Both the position numbers and the translations under genes were made by a program. Under the pieces are notes generated by a model, which saw only the letters and a program-made list of their open reading frames with translations, did no database searches and was not told the origin of the DNA. A stretch of 64,000 nucleotides of DNA from an uncultured Planctomycetota bacterium (GTDB lineage: Bacteria > Planctomycetota > Planctomycetia > Isosphaerales > Isosphaeraceae): contig CAWGMQ010000008.1 of NCBI GenBank assembly GCA_963823665.1, positions 1,504,001-1,568,000 of the forward strand, given 5' to 3'. Every line of letters starts with the position of its first letter. Position 1 is the stretch's first letter. Below, one piece after another: positions 34,206 to 43,820 of this stretch.

Positions 34206-35885
34206 TCAACTCTTGGCCGGAGCCTGTGGCGACGCTGCGGGAAGAGTCGCCGGGGCCGGCACCAGCACCCGCCTACACACCGCAACCTGCCGCGGGACCT
34301 GCCGTGTTTGAGTCGTCATCACCGTGACAGGCACCTGTACCGGAACGCACACCGGGATCTGGCGAGTCACGGTTTCCGTGACCTGGCGGGCCTGAGTCTT
34401 GCACACCGTGATCGGAACCCGGGTCGTCACCGTAAAGGGCACTTGCTCGGTCACTGTCTCAGTGACCTGACGGGGCTGGTACTTGATCACCGTGACCGGC
34501 ACCTGGACGGGCACGCTCAACGGGTATTGCTGCGTGACGCTTTCGGTGACCTGGCGCGACCGGGAGGTCATCACGGTCACCGGCACCTGGAACGGCACGC
34601 TGACCGGATACTGCTCGGTGACATTTTCGGTCACCTGGCGATATCGCGTCGTGGCAACCTTCTCGGTCCTCTGCTCAGGCACGCTGATCGTGGTTGTGAC
34701 CGGCACGGTTTCGGCCACCTGCTTCGCCACCATCACCGTCACGGGTACGGTATACTCCTCGACCTTCTGCTCCGGAACCGACACATTGACCGTCACCGGC
34801 ACCATCTCGATCCGGGTTTCGGGCACCTCGACCGTTTTTTGGACCGGCACGACCCGCGTTCGCGTTTGCTGCACGTAACACGTCTGGGGCACTTGCCGCA
34901 CCACCGGTTTCGAGACGAAGACTTGTTTGGTGGAATACGTGGTGAGCGTGGTCGTGCATCGCCCACAAGACGAGTGGCCTCCGCGGCACGACTTCGCGCC
35001 GCACCCATGGTTGCAAGCGACGGGCACGACGCAAACAGAGGGTACGCAGACGTTCTGGTAGCATCCCTGCTCCTCGACGACCCGGCTATAGGTAGTGACC
35101 GGCACCGGCTCGGTGTACGACTCGGGGACGAGCGTCGTCTCGACCCGCGACGTCGTGAACGACACCGTCTTCGGCTGATACTCCGTTTGACGCACCGTTT
35201 TCATGACAGTGGTGTAGCGATACTGCTTCTCGGTTTTCGCCACCGGCTCGAGGACCGTCTTCCAGATCTGCTGATTGATGATCTTCTGTTGCGGCACGTA
35301 GACCGTGTACGTGCGCGGCACGTTCACGACCTCGGGGATAGAACGGCTGACGGGCACCGTCCGGCTCTTGTACTCCGTCCGATACCGCGTCTGCATCTGC
35401 GTCGTCGGAACCTGATCGACGACGGTGCGCGTGACGGGCACGTTCCGCGTCTTGTATTCCGTCTTGAATTGGGTCTTCATCTCGGTCGACGGAATCTGAT
35501 CCATGACGGTGCGCGTGATCGGTACGCTTCGCGTCTTGTAATCCGTGCGATACTGGGTTTGCATCTCTGTCGAGGAAACCTGGTCGAACACGGTGCGGGT
35601 GACCGGCACGGTCTCGGTCTTGTACTCCGTTCTGTATTCGGTTTGCAGCTTGGTCTGCGGCACGAGAGTGCACTCCGTGTCGTAGACCGTCTCATAGAAG
35701 ACCTGGTCCTGCCACACCATCGGTGCCGTCGCCGCGGCAGATTGCGCCGATGGTGCCGCACTGCTTCCCGATTGGCCCGAAGCCGTCGCGGGCGTCTGCG
35801 AAAGTGCCATCGCGCCCGCGGCGTGACCAATACACAATCCCGCCGCGACTACCGCAGCGGTTCTCAATCGCATCCTCGATTTCAT
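34206..35885 (-). CDS. Secreted Val/Thr/Pro-rich repeat protein (YTV-like)
   Basis: Signal peptide; repeated YRTEYKT.TVPVTRTV and VPVQVPVTV units; central Cys/Gly-rich segment. Confidence 0.75.
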   Translation of the reverse strand: MKSRMRLRTAAVVAAGLCIGHAAGAMALSQTPATASGQSGSSAAPSAQSAAATAPMVWQDQVFYETVYDTECTLVPQTKLQTEYRTEYKTETVPVTRTVFDQVSSTEMQTQYRTDYKTRSVPITRTVMDQIPSTEMKTQFKTEYKTRNVPVTRTVVDQVPTTQMQTRYRTEYKSRTVPVSRSIPEVVNVPRTYTVYVPQQKIINQQIWKTVLEPVAKTEKQYRYTTVMKTVRQTEYQPKTVSFTTSRVETTLVPESYTEPVPVTTYSRVVEEQGCYQNVCVPSVCVVPVACNHGCGAKSCRGGHSSCGRCTTTLTTYSTKQVFVSKPVVRQVPQTCYVQQTRTRVVPVQKTVEVPETRIEMVPVTVNVSVPEQKVEEYTVPVTVMVAKQVAETVPVTTTISVPEQRTEKVATTRYRQVTENVTEQYPVSVPFQVPVTVMTSRSRQVTESVTQQYPLSVPVQVPVTVIKYQPRQVTETVTEQVPFTVTTRVPITVCKTQARQVTETVTRQIPVCVPVQVPVTVMTTQTRQVPRQVAVCRRVLVPAPATLPAASPQAPAKS

Positions 35886-35951
35886 CGTCGCTACTCTCCA
35901 CGCTGTTCGATTGCTTGAGACCGCTCCTTCACCGAATACGCGCATCCCTGA

Positions 35952-37106
35952 TCAAAGACCGCCTTGCGGCCTCGCACCCGACTGTGATGAAGCAGGAGCG
36001 CTCTGGGCAGAAGCCGGCCCGGCGACGGGCCGAACCTGAGTGGTCATGACCGTGACGGGCACCTGGTAAGGCACGCACACAGATCTCTGCTGCGTGACCG
36101 TCTCCGTGACCGGCCGGCACTTCACCACCGGAACGGTCACCGTCGAATAGTTCGGAATCATCTTCGTCTCACAGACCGTCACCGTTTCCGTGACCGGTTT
36201 CGTTATCACCTTGGTCACGGTGACGTCGTACGACTGCATTTGATACTCGGTCACACACTGATTGACCGTCCCACATGGCACGCGGTTGACTTTAGTCACC
36301 GGTACCGTGACCGTTTGCTGCACGGGGTTGAATTTCGTCCGCGTTCGCTGCACATAGCAAGTTTCCGGTACGAATTTCACCGCCGGGCGGGTGACAGGCA
36401 CTTGCTGGTAGGTGCAAGTTGTCACCGGGCGGTAGCCCACACAGGCCGTCGCACCGCCACACGCACCGCAGCCTCCGCCGCCACAGCGGTGCCCGCACGT
36501 GTGAGCACACGTGACAACCGGAACGTACGAGGTCGACGGAATGCGCTGCGTCACATAACAGACTTGCGGCTCGACAACCTTGCGCATCTTCGTGACCGGC
36601 ACGGTCTCGGTCACGCACTCGGGTATCATGCGCGTGATGACCTTATTGACCATCTCGGTCGTGCAATACGTCTGATAAATCGTCCGCTGCACCGTCTTGG
36701 TCACCGGCACCGGGCGCCAGCACTTCTGCACCACCGTCGTCGGCTCGCACACGATTCGCGTCACCGGTTTGTTCACCATCTGCTGCTGCGGTGTGTAGCG
36801 TGTGACGGTGCGCGTCTCGTTAACAACCTCGCGCACCATGCGTGTCACCGGGACGTTCTCCGTCCGGCATTCAGTTCGATAGAGCGTCTGGGTGTACGTC
36901 ACGGGCACTTGCACGTATTCATACGCCTGCGCCGAACCCGTTTGACCGGCCGGAACCACCGGTGTTCCAGCTTGCGCGGAGCCGGCCGCCGGCTCCTGCT
37001 TCGATGCCGTCTGGATGGCCGCCGCCGCCCAACTGGCCGACATGACCAGACCGGCAATCATCACCCCAACACGCGCGAGCACTCGCTGACGAATCAATCG
37101 CTGCAT
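35952..37106 (-). CDS. Secreted Val/Thr/Cys-rich repeat protein (YTV-like), paralog of the downstream gene
   Basis: Signal peptide; VPVT repeats; central CGHRCGGGGCGACGG; shares the C-terminal VPVTVMTTQ with its neighbour. Confidence 0.75.
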   Translation of the reverse strand: MQRLIRQRVLARVGVMIAGLVMSASWAAAAIQTASKQEPAAGSAQAGTPVVPAGQTGSAQAYEYVQVPVTYTQTLYRTECRTENVPVTRMVREVVNETRTVTRYTPQQQMVNKPVTRIVCEPTTVVQKCWRPVPVTKTVQRTIYQTYCTTEMVNKVITRMIPECVTETVPVTKMRKVVEPQVCYVTQRIPSTSYVPVVTCAHTCGHRCGGGGCGACGGATACVGYRPVTTCTYQQVPVTRPAVKFVPETCYVQRTRTKFNPVQQTVTVPVTKVNRVPCGTVNQCVTEYQMQSYDVTVTKVITKPVTETVTVCETKMIPNYSTVTVPVVKCRPVTETVTQQRSVCVPYQVPVTVMTTQVRPVAGPASAQSAPASSQSGARPQGGL

Positions 37107-37621
37107 CACCTGGCCTCCACCTTGCGGAACGCGAATCACCTCGACGTCAGAAATGGCGGACCACGCAAATCGAGAACATGCAGCGTAGCCCGAAAAATTG
37201 CTGTAGAGACCCAATACTACCTAGAATATACACTCTGTGCAAGCTTCTCAATCTGTTGCACGAAATACTCTTCACAGGGCAACGCCTTCGGCACGTGCGC
37301 AGAAATATGGACAAACGTACCGATCCGCGCCGTGGCTCGAGCTCATTGGCCCACGATGTCATCAGCTTGGTGTCAGTTGGTCGCGAGCATTGATTCTTCT
37401 CATGCAGCTCGAGCGCGCATTCGGTTCCTGGCACCTTTTCTGGCACCGTTTCGCAGGGGTCGCGGGACGGACGAGTTTTGCGTATGCTTTAGAGAGCCGG
37501 CGGGAGTGTTACGATTTGAATCCACCGAGAGCCATCTGACGGATTGCCCGCCGGAACCGTCCTCGACGCCGGAAAAAGCTCCATTTCGCTGTCCCGAATG
37601 AATCGGTTCCACGTTACCTCC

Positions 37622-38530
37622 ATGACCAAGATCGAGCGCGAACGCAATCTGGCCGTATTCATTGATCTGGAAAACCTGGCGATGGGCTTCCAGAATCAGC
37701 GCAAGATCCGATTCGAGGTGCAGAAGGTGCTCGAGCGTCTGGTCGAGAAGGGAAAGCTCGTGGTCAAGAAGGCGTATGCCGACTGGAGCCGGTTCCCGAG
37801 CTATACGGCTCCATTCCATGAGGCCGCCATCGAATTGATCGAGATTCCCAAGCGCTCGCAGACGGGCAAGAATTCGGCGGATATCCGGCTGGTCGTCGAC
37901 GCCATGGATCTGGCCTGGAGCAAAACGCATCTCGACACGTTCGTGATCGTCTCGGGTGACTCTGACTTTTCGCCATTGGTCTCCAAGCTCAAGGAGAATG
38001 GCAAACACGTCATCGGTCTGGGGATGAAAGGGTCGACTTCAGACCTGCTCCGGGATAACTGCGACGAATTCATTTACTATGAAGATCTGGAGCGGCAGGA
38101 ACAAAACGAGCAGCAGCTCGTCACCGATTTGAACACTTACTTGCCCCCGAACTTGCCCGAGCGCCAGCGTGAGCTCTACAGCCTCCTGATCGAGGCCTGT
38201 CACGCGCTGCGGCGTGAAAATCACGAGGTGATCTACGCCTCGATGATCAAGGACACGATGAAACGAAAGAAGCCGTCGTTTGACGAGAGCTACTACGGAT
38301 ATCGCAGCTTCACCCACTTGCTCGAGGACGCCGATAACCTGGCGCTGGTGGATATCGAGCGGAACCCCAAGAGCGGTACGTACGTCGTGACCGGCTTCAG
38401 CGGCGAGCGCGATCGAAAAGCGCATCGCGGCCAACCGGGCGCCAACAACACTGCGGCGCCGCCGGTTGTGGATCCGGCCGCGAAACTCGGCGCGCGGCCA
38501 AGCCGCGGCCTGCCTCGCCGCCGGCGCTGA
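37622..38530 (+). CDS. NYN domain (PIN-like) protein with C-terminal OST-HTH/LOTUS domain
   Basis: AVFIDLEN, KAYADW, GKNSADIRLVVDAMD, IVSGDSDFSPL and PSFDESYYGYRSF..LLE. Confidence 0.9.
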   Translation: MTKIERERNLAVFIDLENLAMGFQNQRKIRFEVQKVLERLVEKGKLVVKKAYADWSRFPSYTAPFHEAAIELIEIPKRSQTGKNSADIRLVVDAMDLAWSKTHLDTFVIVSGDSDFSPLVSKLKENGKHVIGLGMKGSTSDLLRDNCDEFIYYEDLERQEQNEQQLVTDLNTYLPPNLPERQRELYSLLIEACHALRRENHEVIYASMIKDTMKRKKPSFDESYYGYRSFTHLLEDADNLALVDIERNPKSGTYVVTGFSGERDRKAHRGQPGANNTAAPPVVDPAAKLGARPSRGLPRRRR

Positions 38531-38608: not shown

Positions 38609-39508
38609 ATGTTCCTTGCTCAAAAACTCCATCGTTCCGGCCCAGACCTCGACCGCGGGCGGGCAGACCGCCATTCTCTCCGCCCACGCGGACGAGCGAT
38701 CACCCTCGCCCTGCTGGCAGTTTGCGTGATCGGCGTGCCGGGAAGAGCCGCCGATGAGCCGCAGAATGAAACGCTCGCACAGCACAAGCTCAAGGCAATG
38801 GGCTCTCTCCAGGTCCTCGAGGACGAAGGCGAATTCAAGACCAAGCTCACGGAAGCGCGGCGGCTCCTGCGGCAGTTGAACTACTCGATCTTGCAGCAGA
38901 AGGGAACCATGAGCCCGCAGCAGTATCAAAAAAACCTTGAGGGAATGAAAGAAGAATTGAACCAGATGAGGTCGCAGATCAACCAGGCCAACCAGCAGAT
39001 GAACTCGCTTCCACGTTTCCGCGGCCGGCTCTCAAGCAGCTACGCACAAGAGGCGTACAACGAGCTCATGGTTTATCGAAATCAGCTCCAGGTGCAGGTC
39101 AACCAGGAATCGGCCTGGCTGAATCAGCTTCAGAGCCAGAAGGCCGACCCCAAAGCCAAGGACAAGATCGACGCCGAGGTGAACGACCGGCGCGACGCCT
39201 ATCACCAGGCGCTTCAAGACTTGCGCACACTGGCTGACTCGGTCACCAAGAAATACGCCGATCTGGAAAAAGACTCCGAGGTGAAGGATGCCATTGCCGC
39301 GCTCGGCAAAGGCAAGCGAGAAAAGCCGAAACTCGGCCCGTCTCATGATTTTTTGAACAACGTGAAACTTCTCGAGAAGCTTGAGAAGGCTGAATCCTCC
39401 GGCGATGCATTCCAGGAGAAGCCCGCGCGGCGTTCGCGCACCAAGAGTCGGTCCAAGACGAAAGATGCGGTCTCCACCACGCCCGCGAAGGGTAAACCCG
39501 GCGAGTGA
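38609..39508 (+). CDS. Exported coiled-coil hypothetical protein
   Basis: Hydrophobic segment (LALLAVCVIGV) then Gln/Glu/Lys-rich heptads; its stop overlaps the serpin start. Confidence 0.65.
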   Translation: MFLAQKLHRSGPDLDRGRADRHSLRPRGRAITLALLAVCVIGVPGRAADEPQNETLAQHKLKAMGSLQVLEDEGEFKTKLTEARRLLRQLNYSILQQKGTMSPQQYQKNLEGMKEELNQMRSQINQANQQMNSLPRFRGRLSSSYAQEAYNELMVYRNQLQVQVNQESAWLNQLQSQKADPKAKDKIDAEVNDRRDAYHQALQDLRTLADSVTKKYADLEKDSEVKDAIAALGKGKREKPKLGPSHDFLNNVKLLEKLEKAESSGDAFQEKPARRSRTKSRSKTKDAVSTTPAKGKPGE

Positions 39509-40755
39509 AGCTCGACATGACACGGTTTCTGCCGACGGTCGTTTGTCTGGCCTTGTATGGAGGGTTTTGCGGGCAGTGCGCCGCCGGCGAGGGTTCGACC
39601 ATGGATGCCAGCACCGAGGTCGTCCGTGACAACAACGCGTTTGCGGTGGACCTCTACGGACGGGTCGCGCGGGGCGACGGCAACCGATTCCTGTCGCCCT
39701 TCTCGATCTCATGCGCCCTCGCCATGACCTATGGGGGCGCACGGGGCGATACCGCCGTCCAGATCGCCAAGGCCCTGCATTTCAAGCTGCCGGCCGAGCA
39801 GCTTCACTCCGCGTTTCATCGCTTGATTGCCGATTTGAACCATCAAAACGACTCCGGGACCGACCCCAATACCCCCCGCGCCGTTGAGCTGCTCACTGCG
39901 AACGCGCTCTGGACACAGTCGGGTGAGCGGATCCTCCCTGAATTCCAGAAGCTGATCGAGAAGAGCTACGGAGGCGGGCTCATTCCGGTCGACTTCCGCG
40001 ACGCGCCAGCCGCGGCGTGCGAGTACATCAATCACTGGGTCGAGGAACAGACCAGAGGAAGAATCAAGGACCTGATCAAGCCGAACCACATCGACTCGCG
40101 CACCGTGCTCATTCTCACCAACGCGATCTACTTCAAGGCGCTCTGGGCCAGCCCGTTTCCCGCGACACTCACCCGGCCTGGTGATTTCCAGGCATCGTCT
40201 GGGGAAAAGGTTCCAGCGAAGCTGATGCACCTCACCGGGAAATTCGCTTACGCAGAAGACACCACGGCGCAGGCACTGGAGCTGCCTTATCAGGGCGCGA
40301 ATCTCTCGATGGTCATCGTCTTGCCCAAGGCTTCAGACGGGCTCAGCTCGCTCGAATCCTCGCTTTCGCTTACAAAGCTTGATGGCTGGGTCAGTTCGCT
40401 GCTCCAGCGCCGCATCGAGGTGATTCTGCCCCGGTTCAAGCTCACCGCGGAATTCGAGCTCAAAGACACCCTTTCTTCGCTGGGAATGCCGGCGGCATTC
40501 GCCGGAGGCGACGCCGACTTTTCCGGAATGAACGGTTCCCGCGATCTCGTGATCTCGGCCGTCGTGCACAAGGCATTCGTTGAGGTCGAGGAAAAGGGAA
40601 CCGAAGCCGCGGCGGCCACCGGGGTCGTGATGGCCCGAGCTTCCCTCGCGATGGGGCCGCCGGTTGTCTTCCGCGCCGATCATCCTTTCCTCTTCCTGAT
40701 CCGCGACAAATCGACCGGCAGCATCCTCTTCATCGGGCGCCTGGCGCGGCCGTAA
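39505..40755 (+). CDS. Serpin family protease inhibitor, secreted
   Basis: NNAFAVDLY, FLSPFSIS, INHWVEEQTRGRIKDL, NAIYFKA.W, hinge EKGTEAAAAT and FRADHPFLF. Confidence 0.95.
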   Translation: MKLDMTRFLPTVVCLALYGGFCGQCAAGEGSTMDASTEVVRDNNAFAVDLYGRVARGDGNRFLSPFSISCALAMTYGGARGDTAVQIAKALHFKLPAEQLHSAFHRLIADLNHQNDSGTDPNTPRAVELLTANALWTQSGERILPEFQKLIEKSYGGGLIPVDFRDAPAAACEYINHWVEEQTRGRIKDLIKPNHIDSRTVLILTNAIYFKALWASPFPATLTRPGDFQASSGEKVPAKLMHLTGKFAYAEDTTAQALELPYQGANLSMVIVLPKASDGLSSLESSLSLTKLDGWVSSLLQRRIEVILPRFKLTAEFELKDTLSSLGMPAAFAGGDADFSGMNGSRDLVISAVVHKAFVEVEEKGTEAAAATGVVMARASLAMGPPVVFRADHPFLFLIRDKSTGSILFIGRLARP

Positions 40756-40853: not shown

Positions 40854-41612
40854 ATGATCCTCGGCAAACTCTGGAAAGCCATCGCAGCACAGTTCAACAA
40901 GCTGGCCAACGCGATCCGCGGGGTCGACCCGATCGCCGAGATGCAATATGAATACGACCGCTCGGTCGAGCAGATCAAAGAGGGCCGGGAGGGCCTGGCC
41001 CAGTACCGCGCCTTGGTCGAGCGGGTTTCGCGCCAGGTGGAGAATGCTCGCAAGCAGGTTGCCATGCTCGAAGCCAAGGTCAAGGCCTACTTGAATGCCG
41101 GCGACCGCGACAACGCGGGCCGGATTGCCCTCGAGCTCAAGCGTGCCAGGGACGACCAGGCCGAAAACGAAAAGCAACTCGCGCTCCACGAGCAGGCTTA
41201 CCAGAACAACCTTCTGAAAATTCAGCGCGCGGTCAAGAAGCTCGACGACGTGAGGCACAAGATCTCCACATACGATGCCGAGCTGAAGATGAGCCGTGCC
41301 GAGGCCGAGATGGCCGCCCTCGCGAACCAGTTCCATTTCGACGTCACAACCGACTTCGGCCAGGCCGAGCAGATGCTTCAGGACCAGATCGACAAGAATC
41401 GCGCCAAGGTCCGCGTAGCGGCTGACCTCTCCGGCGAGGGTGTCGAAGAGATCCAGCGCGAAGTGAACGTTGAAAAAGCCATGGCCGATAACGCCTTGCG
41501 GGAATTTGAAATCTCCCAGGGCATGGTCACCCCCGAAACGAGCAAAATACCCCAGGCGACCAAAGAGCTGGGCCCGGCAGCCAAAACGCTCGCGCCGCTC
41601 CCCGAGATCTGA
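40854..41612 (+). CDS. PspA/IM30 (Vipp1/ESCRT-III superfamily) protein
   Basis: Amphipathic N-terminal helix ending DP, long coiled coil with AYLNAGDRDNA..IALEL, LKMSRAEAEM and KNRAKVRVAADLS. Confidence 0.85.
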   Translation: MILGKLWKAIAAQFNKLANAIRGVDPIAEMQYEYDRSVEQIKEGREGLAQYRALVERVSRQVENARKQVAMLEAKVKAYLNAGDRDNAGRIALELKRARDDQAENEKQLALHEQAYQNNLLKIQRAVKKLDDVRHKISTYDAELKMSRAEAEMAALANQFHFDVTTDFGQAEQMLQDQIDKNRAKVRVAADLSGEGVEEIQREVNVEKAMADNALREFEISQGMVTPETSKIPQATKELGPAAKTLAPLPEI

Positions 41613-41663
41613 GCCGAGCCGCACCCGAGTAAAGGTCGATCGATCGATCGAGGGACGCAGACC

Positions 41664-43475
41664 GTGGAGACCCGGCCGCAATCCTCCCCCGCTGAGTCCA
41701 CCACGCTCCGGCCCCCGTCGGGCGATGGAGCCGGTGACGCCGTACCCTGGCTGCCACGCTGGGCGCGTGAATTCTCCGACCAGTTCTTTGCCGGCACAAC
41801 CTGCGTCTTTCTGCTCCACGGCAACGTGCATGACCTCACCCGGCAGGAACATGACGGCAGCCCCGCGTACGGCGGCGTCACCGAGTTCCTGGCAACCCAG
41901 CTCTTTGGCAAGTGGGACGTCGTCCTCCAGCACGACTTGAGCCTGGGACTGAAGGCCGCATCCGGCGGCGACGCCGACCGCCTGCGCCGCATGCTCGCCA
42001 TCCTCTCCGAGCGCATCGGCGAGCCCAAATCGTGGCCGCGCGATCCGGACATGATCCTCTCGCTCCTCGACAAGCTCATCCAGAGCATTCTGATGGAGGT
42101 CGATCCGGCCAAACGGATCAGCCTGGGAATCATCCTCGACTACGCCCAGTACTTGATCCCTTCCGCCGAGCTTTCGCAGATGGCCGCCGCGCAGGGAGCG
42201 CGGCTGGTGCGGCTGTTGTCCTGGGCACAGAACCCGTACATCAAGCGGCACAATATTGCTGTGTGCTTGCTTTGCGACCGTCTGGCCGAGATCAACGAGC
42301 GGTTGATCGGCAGCCCGCATCTCGCGACGCTCGAAGTCGCCATGCCCGACGCCGCTGCGCGGGAAGAGTTCGCCACCTGGTACGACAACCGCGACGCCAG
42401 GCTGGGAAACCTGACCGACTTCACTCCCAAGCAACTGGCGGAGCTGACCGCAGGGCTGAACCTGGTGAACATCGAGCGGCTGCTCGCCGGCGCCGGGCAG
42501 TCCGGCCAAAAGCTGGATTCCCAGGCCCTCAAGCGTTTGAAAAAAGGCCTGATCGAGCGCCAGGCCCGGGGCCTTGTTGAATTCGTCGAGCCGCCCCAGA
42601 CACTCGACGACTTCGTCGGCAACGACGCGATCAAGCACCGTCTCGTCGACGACGCGGCCCTCTTGACCAAGGGCCGACTCGACGCCGCGCCGATGGGGTA
42701 CTTGATCTGCGGCCCAGTGGGCACCGGCAAGACCTACCTCGCCGAGTGCTTCGCCGGCTCGGTCGGCCTGCCGTGCGTCAAGCTCCGCAATTTCCGGTCC
42801 AAGTACGTGGGCGAGACTGAGGGGAACCTCGAGCAGATCTTGAACGTGCTCCGCGCGATGGGGCCGGTCGTCGTGGTCATCGACGAAGCCGACGCGGCGC
42901 TGGGGAATCGCGAGGCCGGGGGCGACTCGGGCACCTCGAGCCGGGTCTTCTCCATGATCGCCGCGCAGATGGGAGACACGCGCTATCGCGGCAAGCTGCT
43001 CTGGATGCTCCTCACCAGCCGCCCCGATTTGCTGCCGATCGATCTGAAGCGGCAAGGACGCGCCGAAGTGCACCTGCCCCTGTTTGCGCCGGCCGATGAT
43101 GCCGAGATCGGCGTCATGATCAAGGTGCTGGCGCGCAAGAACAAGACCAGCCTGGCCGAGGAAGCCTTGCCGAAGGGCCTCTCCGGCCACGGGTTCAGCG
43201 GCGCCGACATCGAGAGCATCGTGCTTTCGGCGAAGAGAACCGCGCTGACGCAATCTCGCGAAGTGATCACCCGCGACGATCTCGACAGTACCATCAAGGA
43301 TTTCATCCCCTCGGCGCAGGGCCTGGAAAAAGAGAAACAAGAGCTGGCCGCCGTGCTCGAATGCACGTCGATGTCGTTTCTGCCCGCGGCCTGGCGGGCG
43401 CGCGTCGCCTCCGCCGACGGCCGCACCAAGCTCCAGGAACGAATGGCCGCCATCCGGCAACTGATAGAAGAGTGA
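41664..43475 (+). CDS. AAA+ ATPase with a degenerate N-terminal P-loop-like domain and an intact C-terminal classical AAA module
   Basis: Walker A GPVGTGKT, pore loop SKYVGETE, Walker B VVVIDE, SRH TSRPDLLPIDLKRQGR and FSGADIE; N-terminal FLLHGNVHD. Confidence 0.9.
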   Translation: METRPQSSPAESTTLRPPSGDGAGDAVPWLPRWAREFSDQFFAGTTCVFLLHGNVHDLTRQEHDGSPAYGGVTEFLATQLFGKWDVVLQHDLSLGLKAASGGDADRLRRMLAILSERIGEPKSWPRDPDMILSLLDKLIQSILMEVDPAKRISLGIILDYAQYLIPSAELSQMAAAQGARLVRLLSWAQNPYIKRHNIAVCLLCDRLAEINERLIGSPHLATLEVAMPDAAAREEFATWYDNRDARLGNLTDFTPKQLAELTAGLNLVNIERLLAGAGQSGQKLDSQALKRLKKGLIERQARGLVEFVEPPQTLDDFVGNDAIKHRLVDDAALLTKGRLDAAPMGYLICGPVGTGKTYLAECFAGSVGLPCVKLRNFRSKYVGETEGNLEQILNVLRAMGPVVVVIDEADAALGNREAGGDSGTSSRVFSMIAAQMGDTRYRGKLLWMLLTSRPDLLPIDLKRQGRAEVHLPLFAPADDAEIGVMIKVLARKNKTSLAEEALPKGLSGHGFSGADIESIVLSAKRTALTQSREVITRDDLDSTIKDFIPSAQGLEKEKQELAAVLECTSMSFLPAAWRARVASADGRTKLQERMAAIRQLIEE

Positions 43476-43517
43476 ACCAACACGAGTTAACCGAAGATTT
43501 CACCCGAGGCCCAACTC

Positions 43518-43820
43518 ATGAGCGCAAAGACGAATCGCACTCACTGGCTCGATGAAAAGACGGACGCACCGCTGATCGATGACTACGTCCAGCGCCTGAG
43601 CACGTTCATGGACGCCATGGCCGACGGCAAGATCGACGCGAGCGAGCTGAAATCGCAGGAGGCGCGGGTGACGGCGCTCATGAAAACCGTCGAGCCGGCC
43701 CTCGACGACAAGTTACATGAACAGGTCACGCACCTCCTTTGCGAGCTTTCCGCCTACAACATCATGAACACTCTGCACCAGATCATGGAAAGCAAGCCAA
43801 AGACGAAATTTCGGGGATGA
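43518..43820 (+). CDS. Small helical protein with a DGxID motif (TerB/EF-hand-like)
   Basis: DAMADGKIDASE; GAGG upstream of the ATG; co-oriented with the AAA gene. Confidence 0.7.
   Translation: MSAKTNRTHWLDEKTDAPLIDDYVQRLSTFMDAMADGKIDASELKSQEARVTALMKTVEPALDDKLHEQVTHLLCELSAYNIMNTLHQIMESKPKTKFRG

Follow-up and report, generated by a model that had tools for sequence, protein, structure and literature searches.

A PspA tail motif that tracks a tandem AAA+ ATPase suggests a possible ESCRT-III/Vps4-like pairing in bacteria

The 64,000-nucleotide stretch of DNA analysed here (the window), from an uncultured planctomycete of the Isosphaeraceae (assembly GCA_963823665.1, contig CAWGMQ010000008.1), contains three co-directional genes encoding a member of the PspA/IM30 family of bacterial ESCRT-III proteins, an AAA+ ATPase and a soluble helical protein of 100 amino acids (aa). 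The gaps within this trio measure 51 bp between pspA and the ATPase gene and 42 bp between the ATPase gene and the 100-aa gene, in line with the open reading frames (ORFs) at 40854-43820, about 50 and 40 bp apart, recorded in a first-pass annotation. The operon and the pairing are already known, having been predicted in 2024. New in this analysis are a short motif in the PspA tail, the co-loss of that motif with the ATPase and a ranking of possible partners, which together suggest that the tail may be a handle for the ATPase.

PspA and a two-module AAA+ ATPase

The assignment of the first gene to PspA/IM30 held, with a match to PspA_IM30 (PF04012) of 35.6 bits, narrowly above the cut-off of 33.9. 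A narrow PspA profile found no match in the PDB; a profile of 17 related PspAs matched solved Vipp1/PspA chains over positions 1-245 (E 9e-23). The layout of the window protein is helices 0-5 followed by a tail of ~30 residues. No transmembrane segment was found in it, and its N-terminal helix is amphipathic, but other segments of the protein are more so.

The ATPase matches Pfam AAA (PF00004) at residues 347-471. The KYVGE pore loop and the arginine fingers (R463/R466) of the second region of homology (SRH), both noted at first pass, are present together with Walker A and Walker B, and all of these are invariant or nearly so in 67 homologues. The earlier annotation had overlooked that the N-terminal half is a second, dead AAA module. 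In profile-profile comparison, an alignment of 60 family members matched this half to classical AAA references at 96% (E 2.4e-9) and to the ATPase's own second module at 87%, with 0.1% for a reversed-alignment control; comparison of the two halves succeeded only with this wide alignment, a narrow one giving nothing (probability 0.1%). The lid of the dead module weakly matched p97 and others. Across the 60 members the dead module's P-loop reads G-N-x-x-D, its Walker B has become DY with loss of the glutamate, and its arginine fingers are missing. The active module keeps Walker A, Walker B and K-R-x-G-R, and nearly always its aromatic pore residue. As judged from these alignments, the ATPase is a dead and an active classical AAA module in tandem. 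No MIT domain had been visible at first pass; Pfam likewise gives no MIT match, the N-terminal region being the dead module, and finds no Vps4_C in the ATPase.

Table 1. Coordinates of the trio and of the features discussed, as positions in the window.
Feature	Position	Strand	Basis
pspA (PspA/IM30 family, bacterial ESCRT-III), 252 aa	40854..41612	+	ORF list, PF04012
Tail motif KELGP, residues 237-241; candidate ATPase-recognition tag	41562..41576	+	conservation; tracks ATPase in three phylum samples
Second tail element LAPLPEI, residues 246-252	41589..41609	+	found in host family's PspAs
Tandem classical AAA+ ATPase gene, 603 aa, GTG start	41664..43475	+	ORF list, PF00004
Dead AAA module, residues ~27-305; candidate substrate-docking ring	41742..42578	+	profile-profile, motifs in 60 family members
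Active AAA module and C-terminal helical extension	42579..43475	+	Pfam, conserved motifs
Walker A, residues 350-357	42711-42734	+	active module
Pore loop KYVGE, residues 380-384	42801-42815	+	active module
Walker B, residues 406-410	42879-42893	+	active module
SRH with R463/R466	43014-43067	+	active module
100-aa soluble helical protein gene, unnamed family	43518..43820	+	ORF list, alignment of 65

The NCBIfam scores of the ATPase were 71.2 bits for CDC48, 68.9 for PAN, 57.5 for FtsH and 39.6 for CdvC, all well under cut-off. In a tree whose references were bacterial CDC48, FtsH and CdvC-best sequences, with no archaeal or eukaryotic Vps4 and no Ycf46, the family formed one clade on a long branch beside CDC48 D1 and apart from the CdvC-best sequences. 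Identity to every tree reference was 21-28%. Because the branch is long and all references are equally distant, we claim no origin for the ATPase.

Several known classes were tried and rejected. Orthology with Vps4/CdvC is ruled out, as the ATPase lacks MIT and Vps4_C, has two AAA modules, scores low against CdvC and falls in a separate long-branch clade. Type II unfoldases (Cdc48/p97/VAT) share its tandem classical modules, give the best NCBIfam and PDB matches and have an SRH of the R-x-G-R type; in contrast to them, it has no CDC48 N domain (CDC48_N is detected in the reference CDC48s), its first module is dead, and at 24-28% identity it is no closer to them than to FtsH. An anti-phage IetA/IteA system was dismissed at 52 bits against a cut-off of 510, only the active module matching, and the protease gene expected as a partner is not conserved beside the ATPase in most loci. 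Some sources label relatives of the ATPase 'SpoVK/Ycf46/Vps4 family'; Ycf46 has a dead and an active module. Separately, paired single-module AAA proteins with a best match to the CdvC model occur in various Planctomycetota (L236-L250, L261). Two of them have a weak Vps4_C match and none of five scanned has MIT; they are likely to be what Ravi et al. treat as Vps4-like proteins in bacteria.

Linkage, co-occurrence and the PspA tail motif

Conservation of the neighbourhood was assessed in the best 80 of 258 ATPase relatives found among genome contigs, a sample biased to close kin, the closest being Planctomycetota of the Isosphaerales and Isosphaeraceae. The 100-aa gene accompanied the ATPase in 72 of these 80 loci. 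PspA did so in 70, lying no more than 1 kb away in 64 of them and 4-5 kb upstream in the other 6, so the linkage seen in the window is conserved. Three of the ten loci without PspA had the full 6 kb of upstream sequence, and seven had less. The window's serpin, NYN and ankyrin neighbours recurred in only 2, 2 and 1 of the same 80 loci, and by this measure the linkage of the trio exceeds chance.

The pairing extends to whole genomes. Among 61 genomes of the host family, the ATPase occurs in 26, all of which have this PspA clade (itself found in 27), and 24 of which have the 100-aa gene. In a sample of 151 genomes of Planctomycetota, 4 contained the clade to which the trio belongs and 29 the wider ATPase family (two weak matches excluded); a matching PspA-like gene was found for 28 of the 29. 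In the phylum of G211, whose own locus is from Nannocystaceae, 27 of 101 genomes have the ATPase, and the 27 best PspA-profile matches fall in exactly these genomes, 5 of which had served to build the profile. PspA lay near the ATPase in 7 of the 26 loci fetched from this phylum and was not nearby in 19, and 17 of the ATPases were lone genes; because PspA is not near 19 of the 26, the match in presence is independent of linkage. These frequencies do not bear out the link with planctomycete membrane invaginations drawn at first pass, the family being equally common in the other phylum. The 17 lone ATPases form a clade (L267-L281, L283, L284) in which 9 lie directly upstream of rplU/rpmA/obg-like genes, with a motif-bearing PspA elsewhere in the genome.

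The PspA and ATPase trees were congruent (rho 0.65 over 53 genomes, with 0 of 999 permutations higher), which alone shows little, as kin share genes. Both trees, however, place G211 and G262 among planctomycete sequences, a sign that the two genes were transferred jointly.

Beyond helix 5 of PspA, a variable linker leads to the KELGP motif, where all 62 of 62 close homologues have K237, L239 and G240 or their equivalents. Tails were scored with the pattern [KR]-x-[LIM]-(G or chain end). In G211's phylum the last 25 residues contained it in 27 of 27 ATPase-linked PspAs versus 2 of 42 others (shuffles 1.6 and 1.0), the latter set being 43 fetched from 51 other PspA matches less one open-ended ORF. 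In Planctomycetota, with the last 30 residues scored, the counts were 21 of 25 ATPase-linked against 2 of 20 canonical PspAs (shuffles 1.0 and 1.2), and one of the four misses has the motif farther from the chain end. The pattern was also present in 19 of the 30 best PspA matches in the phylum of G212, an Acidobacteriota locus, where it was used to predict the ATPase before the ATPase searches of ten genomes. All five motif-bearing genomes had the ATPase (E <= 1.2e-83). None of the five motif-less genomes did, yielding general AAA matches only, mostly FtsH-like (best 1.6e-15).

Motif and ATPase were also lost together. Four nested lineages are without both: a clade of eight, G280/G305, a clade of ten in G211's phylum, and G165. 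The clade of eight is nested among motif-bearing PspAs and still adjoins the coiled-coil gene found beside many relatives. In G165, a single contig estimated 93% complete, PspA is cut off ahead of the motif and directly adjoins the 100-aa gene, with no ATPase. Where both are kept, variants of the tail follow the ATPase clades (KxLG, KxL-end and [LI]PE-end). The LAPLPEI pattern, a putative functional element, occurs in 20 of 62 homologues and is similar to the [LI]PE with which tails of the deepest clade end. In G158 and G187 a second PspA of the clade has stayed with a transporter block and has a degenerate tail (L209:6881-7720, L210:10095-10961); the copy adjoining the ATPase is the closer match to the window PspA.

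A candidate handle for the ATPase and its competitors

As the first-pass annotation pointed out, neighbourhoods of PspA and AAA proteins have been noted in comparative genomics, so the novelty of the locus is partial. Ravi et al. (2024, PMC11237479) described PspA with an 'inactive-classical-AAA + classical-AAA' dyad (examples AEY64321.1 and OGG56892.1) and proposed ATP-dependent membrane remodelling comparable to Snf7/VPS4. The window layout is their system, an assignment made by domain layout and gene content: PspA lies beside a two-module AAA protein whose first module is dead, and relatives carry PBPB-OmpA, permease, ABC ATPase and transmembrane (TM) 'Snf7' genes. Unlike their long operon, the window locus is a reduced trio. 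The longer block is linked in many of the 80 relatives (PBPB-OmpA in 35, permease in 34, membrane coiled-coil in 27, vWA in 13), and PMC11237479 describes it as optional. The available text of that paper names no tail motif, 100-aa family, unlinked co-occurrence or planctomycete example of the dyad. No experimental study of the PspA/tandem-AAA system and no mention of a tail motif was found in the literature searched, most subscription papers lying outside it.

According to a 2025 review, bacteria appear to lack a Vps4-like ATPase (PMC7619361). Liu et al. (2021, PMC8281802), who placed PspA/Vipp1 in ESCRT-III, left open whether any ATPase has the role of Vps4 and whether the tails are MIT-interacting motifs (MIMs), adding that the tails after helix 5 evolve too fast for comparison with MIMs. 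ESCRT-III tails engage Vps4 through short motifs (PMC8281802, PMC7240154). The present system resembles ESCRT-III/Vps4 (CdvB/CdvC) in having a polymer protein of ESCRT-III fold, a flexible tail beyond helix 5 that bears a short motif, and a classical AAA protein with an aromatic pore loop. The motif itself differs from those of Vps4 partners: the consensus patterns matched 0 (MIM1) and 4 (MIM2) of 62 PspA tails. The Vps4-analogous module envisaged at first pass gains indirect support from conserved linkage, co-presence without linkage, congruent trees and a motif co-lost with the ATPase, but its ATPase is an analogue and not a Vps4 orthologue. The protein proved not to belong to Vps4, and any working likeness of the system to ESCRT-III/Vps4 is at most an analogy.

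Gene content, domain anatomy, co-occurrence and motif co-loss are matters of observation. Building on them, we propose, with a probability of roughly 60%, that the PspA tail is a MIM-like handle by which an ATPase hexamer would grip and remodel PspA polymers. PspA, judging from its family, would polymerise on the stressed inner membrane, leaving exposed the tail past helix 5 with its short basic-x-hydrophobic tag. The tandem AAA protein, judging from its class, would form a two-tier hexamer, in which the tag might be bound by the dead first ring, in place of the MIT domain of Vps4, or by the pore itself. The active second ring could then thread a PspA subunit by way of its aromatic pore loop and pull it from the polymer, allowing recycling or reshaping; the 100-aa protein may be an optional cofactor of one clade. 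The hexamer, direct binding, binding surface, unfolding and role in stress are all parts that we infer. Counting for this proposal are the linkage, the choice of partner, the match in presence and absence, the motif and its prospective test, the co-loss, the tail variants, the congruent trees and the intact catalytic and pore residues. A bolder version, that bacteria independently evolved a complete ESCRT-III/Vps4-like cycle, with a tandem AAA family whose dead ring is the receptor for a MIM-analogous tag on its own PspA clade, tags that co-evolve by clade and unfolding of subunits from the polymer, is offered tentatively, as a little short of probable.

A number of points weigh against our proposal. 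Binding and disassembly by the ATPase are deduced only, and a motif that binds an ATPase need not be a substrate tag. Membrane remodelling by Synechocystis PspA in the presence of ATP is reported to need no partner ATPase (PMC11746142). Scoring used the same data on which the pattern had been defined, and the chain-end option was added after 8 of 27 tails had been inspected, although the other 19 all fit. One of the 21 planctomycete motif matches (G028) is spurious, lying at the end of helix 5. All five motif-less genomes of the prospective test come from one clade of eight, and the counts as a whole shrink to about four independent losses, since kin share genes. There are also mismatches between the partners: G094 yielded the ATPase but no PspA; G193 has the motif and no ATPase was found in its fragmented assembly (520 contigs); five genomes with the ATPase (G157, G186, G002, G352 and G164) show variant tails that fail the pattern; and the PspA-like partners of the deepest ATPase clade end in [LI]PE instead (6 of 6).

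The chief rival holds that PspA is a regulator or recruiter, its tail binding the ATPase either to hold it inactive, as PspA holds PspF, or to bring it to damaged membrane, where it would extract proteins other than PspA, for instance the linked ABC transporter or membrane proteins that have misfolded. This account predicts the same co-occurrence, co-loss and motif, and genomic data cannot separate it from one in which PspA is the substrate. The contact between PspA and PspF is the known bacterial PspA/AAA contact (PMC7619361), and the long operon with PBPB-OmpA (35 of 80 loci), permease and ABC ATPase recurs in distant clades. The comparison with pspFABC goes as far as a PspA paired with an AAA+ protein; PspF, however, is an NtrC-type activator with a helix-turn-helix domain (HTH), whereas this ATPase is of the classical clade without HTH, and no PspB, PspC or PspF was found by Pfam among five flanking ORFs scanned (a NYN protein, a coiled-coil ORF, a serpin, an ankyrin protein and a membrane protein), which agrees with their reported absence next to the trio. 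The transporter block is, moreover, separable. In the host genome the transporter/'Snf7' block is on contig C4, apart from the trio contig, and a search with a single query protein did not find its coiled-coil marker in 19 of the 26 ATPase genomes of the host family. The placement of the motif also speaks against a regulatory role. Threading substrates usually have a flexible tail with the tag at its free end, and PspF binds PspA at its hairpin. Overall we judge regulation or recruitment unlikely, while regarding it as the strongest competitor.

We give less credence to the idea that the motif serves another partner, such as a protease, the 100-aa protein, the membrane coiled-coil protein or a contact within the PspA polymer, and that its match with the ATPase reflects shared operon inheritance. 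The independent losses are few, the pattern is short and degenerate, and variant tails do occur beside intact ATPases, all of which would fit. Several observations nevertheless speak against it: the G165 PspA adjoins the 100-aa gene and has neither ATPase nor motif, the motif-less clade of eight retains its coiled-coil neighbour, and the match holds in the 17 genomes with a lone ATPase, including the 9 beside rplU/rpmA/obg. Very improbable is a system whose main client is the TM-'Snf7' coiled-coil protein or the transporter, with PspA as passenger: in several phyla the ATPase gene has the coiled-coil gene as its immediate neighbour, with PspA 4-5 kb off, and all 7 family genomes in which it was found have the ATPase, but with the single query it was not found in the other 19 of 26, a clade without the ATPase retains it, and no such motif was seen in 27 of its C-terminal tails.

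The motif supplies what the 2024 operon catalogue did not offer, a molecular handle. A three-residue tag kept or lost with the ATPase indicates which partner to test and which residues to mutate, predicts specificity matched by clade, and provides a handle on whether bacteria have their own equivalent of Vps4. The question can be answered in vitro because all three proteins are soluble and cultured relatives exist.

The 100-aa protein and the surroundings of the trio

The first-pass view of the small protein as part of the trio stands for close relatives, with 72 of 80 loci containing its gene; it is not universal, and was unseen near distant members of the ATPase family. In an alignment of 65 members, W10, F30, D36-G37, E43, E59, H67 and T71 are invariant, and the family has 407 representatives at E<=0.001. 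None of the 65 matched a Pfam family above cut-off, the PDB and PADLOC gave no usable match, and the nearest ESM Atlas clusters are unnamed. An EF-hand suggested by DGKID fell under the Pfam cut-off. PspAA (PF22743) was rejected, with no match in the genome (a control genome was positive) or in the 65 members. Two weak genome matches to the 100-aa protein are ribosome recycling factor. An obligatory adaptor role is dismissed, the protein not being seen near distant ATPases and distant homologues occurring elsewhere. Its gene follows PspA with no adjacent ATPase in G164 and G165, and we weakly favour the view that it assists a single clade as an optional cofactor, perhaps in contact with PspA.

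Distant homologues of the 100-aa gene precede one or two double-zinc-ribbon genes and a gene for a ~660-aa membrane protein (L101-L111, for example L103:6953-10479), an operon that is undescribed; no PspA or tandem ATPase match lies near the 11 loci scored. Three proteins (P0115, P0121, P0126) fuse a distant homologue to a related domain. Between the ATPase and PspA genes of G117, the place of the 100-aa gene is taken by one for a helical protein of 217 aa without a Pfam match (L150:7667-8317).

A TPM-domain coiled-coil membrane protein of ~990 aa is encoded near the trio in 23 of the 80 loci (for example L002:2087-5053), mostly directly upstream of PspA in Isosphaeraceae-type loci; the host copy is on another contig (G000:C5:63691-66676). 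It may substitute for the transporter block in this family. The host's second, canonical PspA and its coiled-coil gene are fragmented in the assembly (G000:C4:2085763-2086414 and C4:1264532-1265367), through sequencing error or decay.

A promoter and terminator scan of the trio locus gave no signal exceeding shuffles. One soil RNA run (share 0.09) contained short scattered contigs, none spanning two genes of the trio, which is evidence neither for nor against expression. Upstream, and in the same direction as the trio, lie genes for a bacterial serpin (39505-40755; PF00079, 398 bits) and a NYN + OST-HTH protein (37544-38530), whose linkage with the trio is nevertheless not conserved. Farther upstream, two long ORFs on the minus strand (34206-35945 and 35952-37214) have signal-like starts and repetitive V/T/P/Q-rich, cysteine-clustered sequence.

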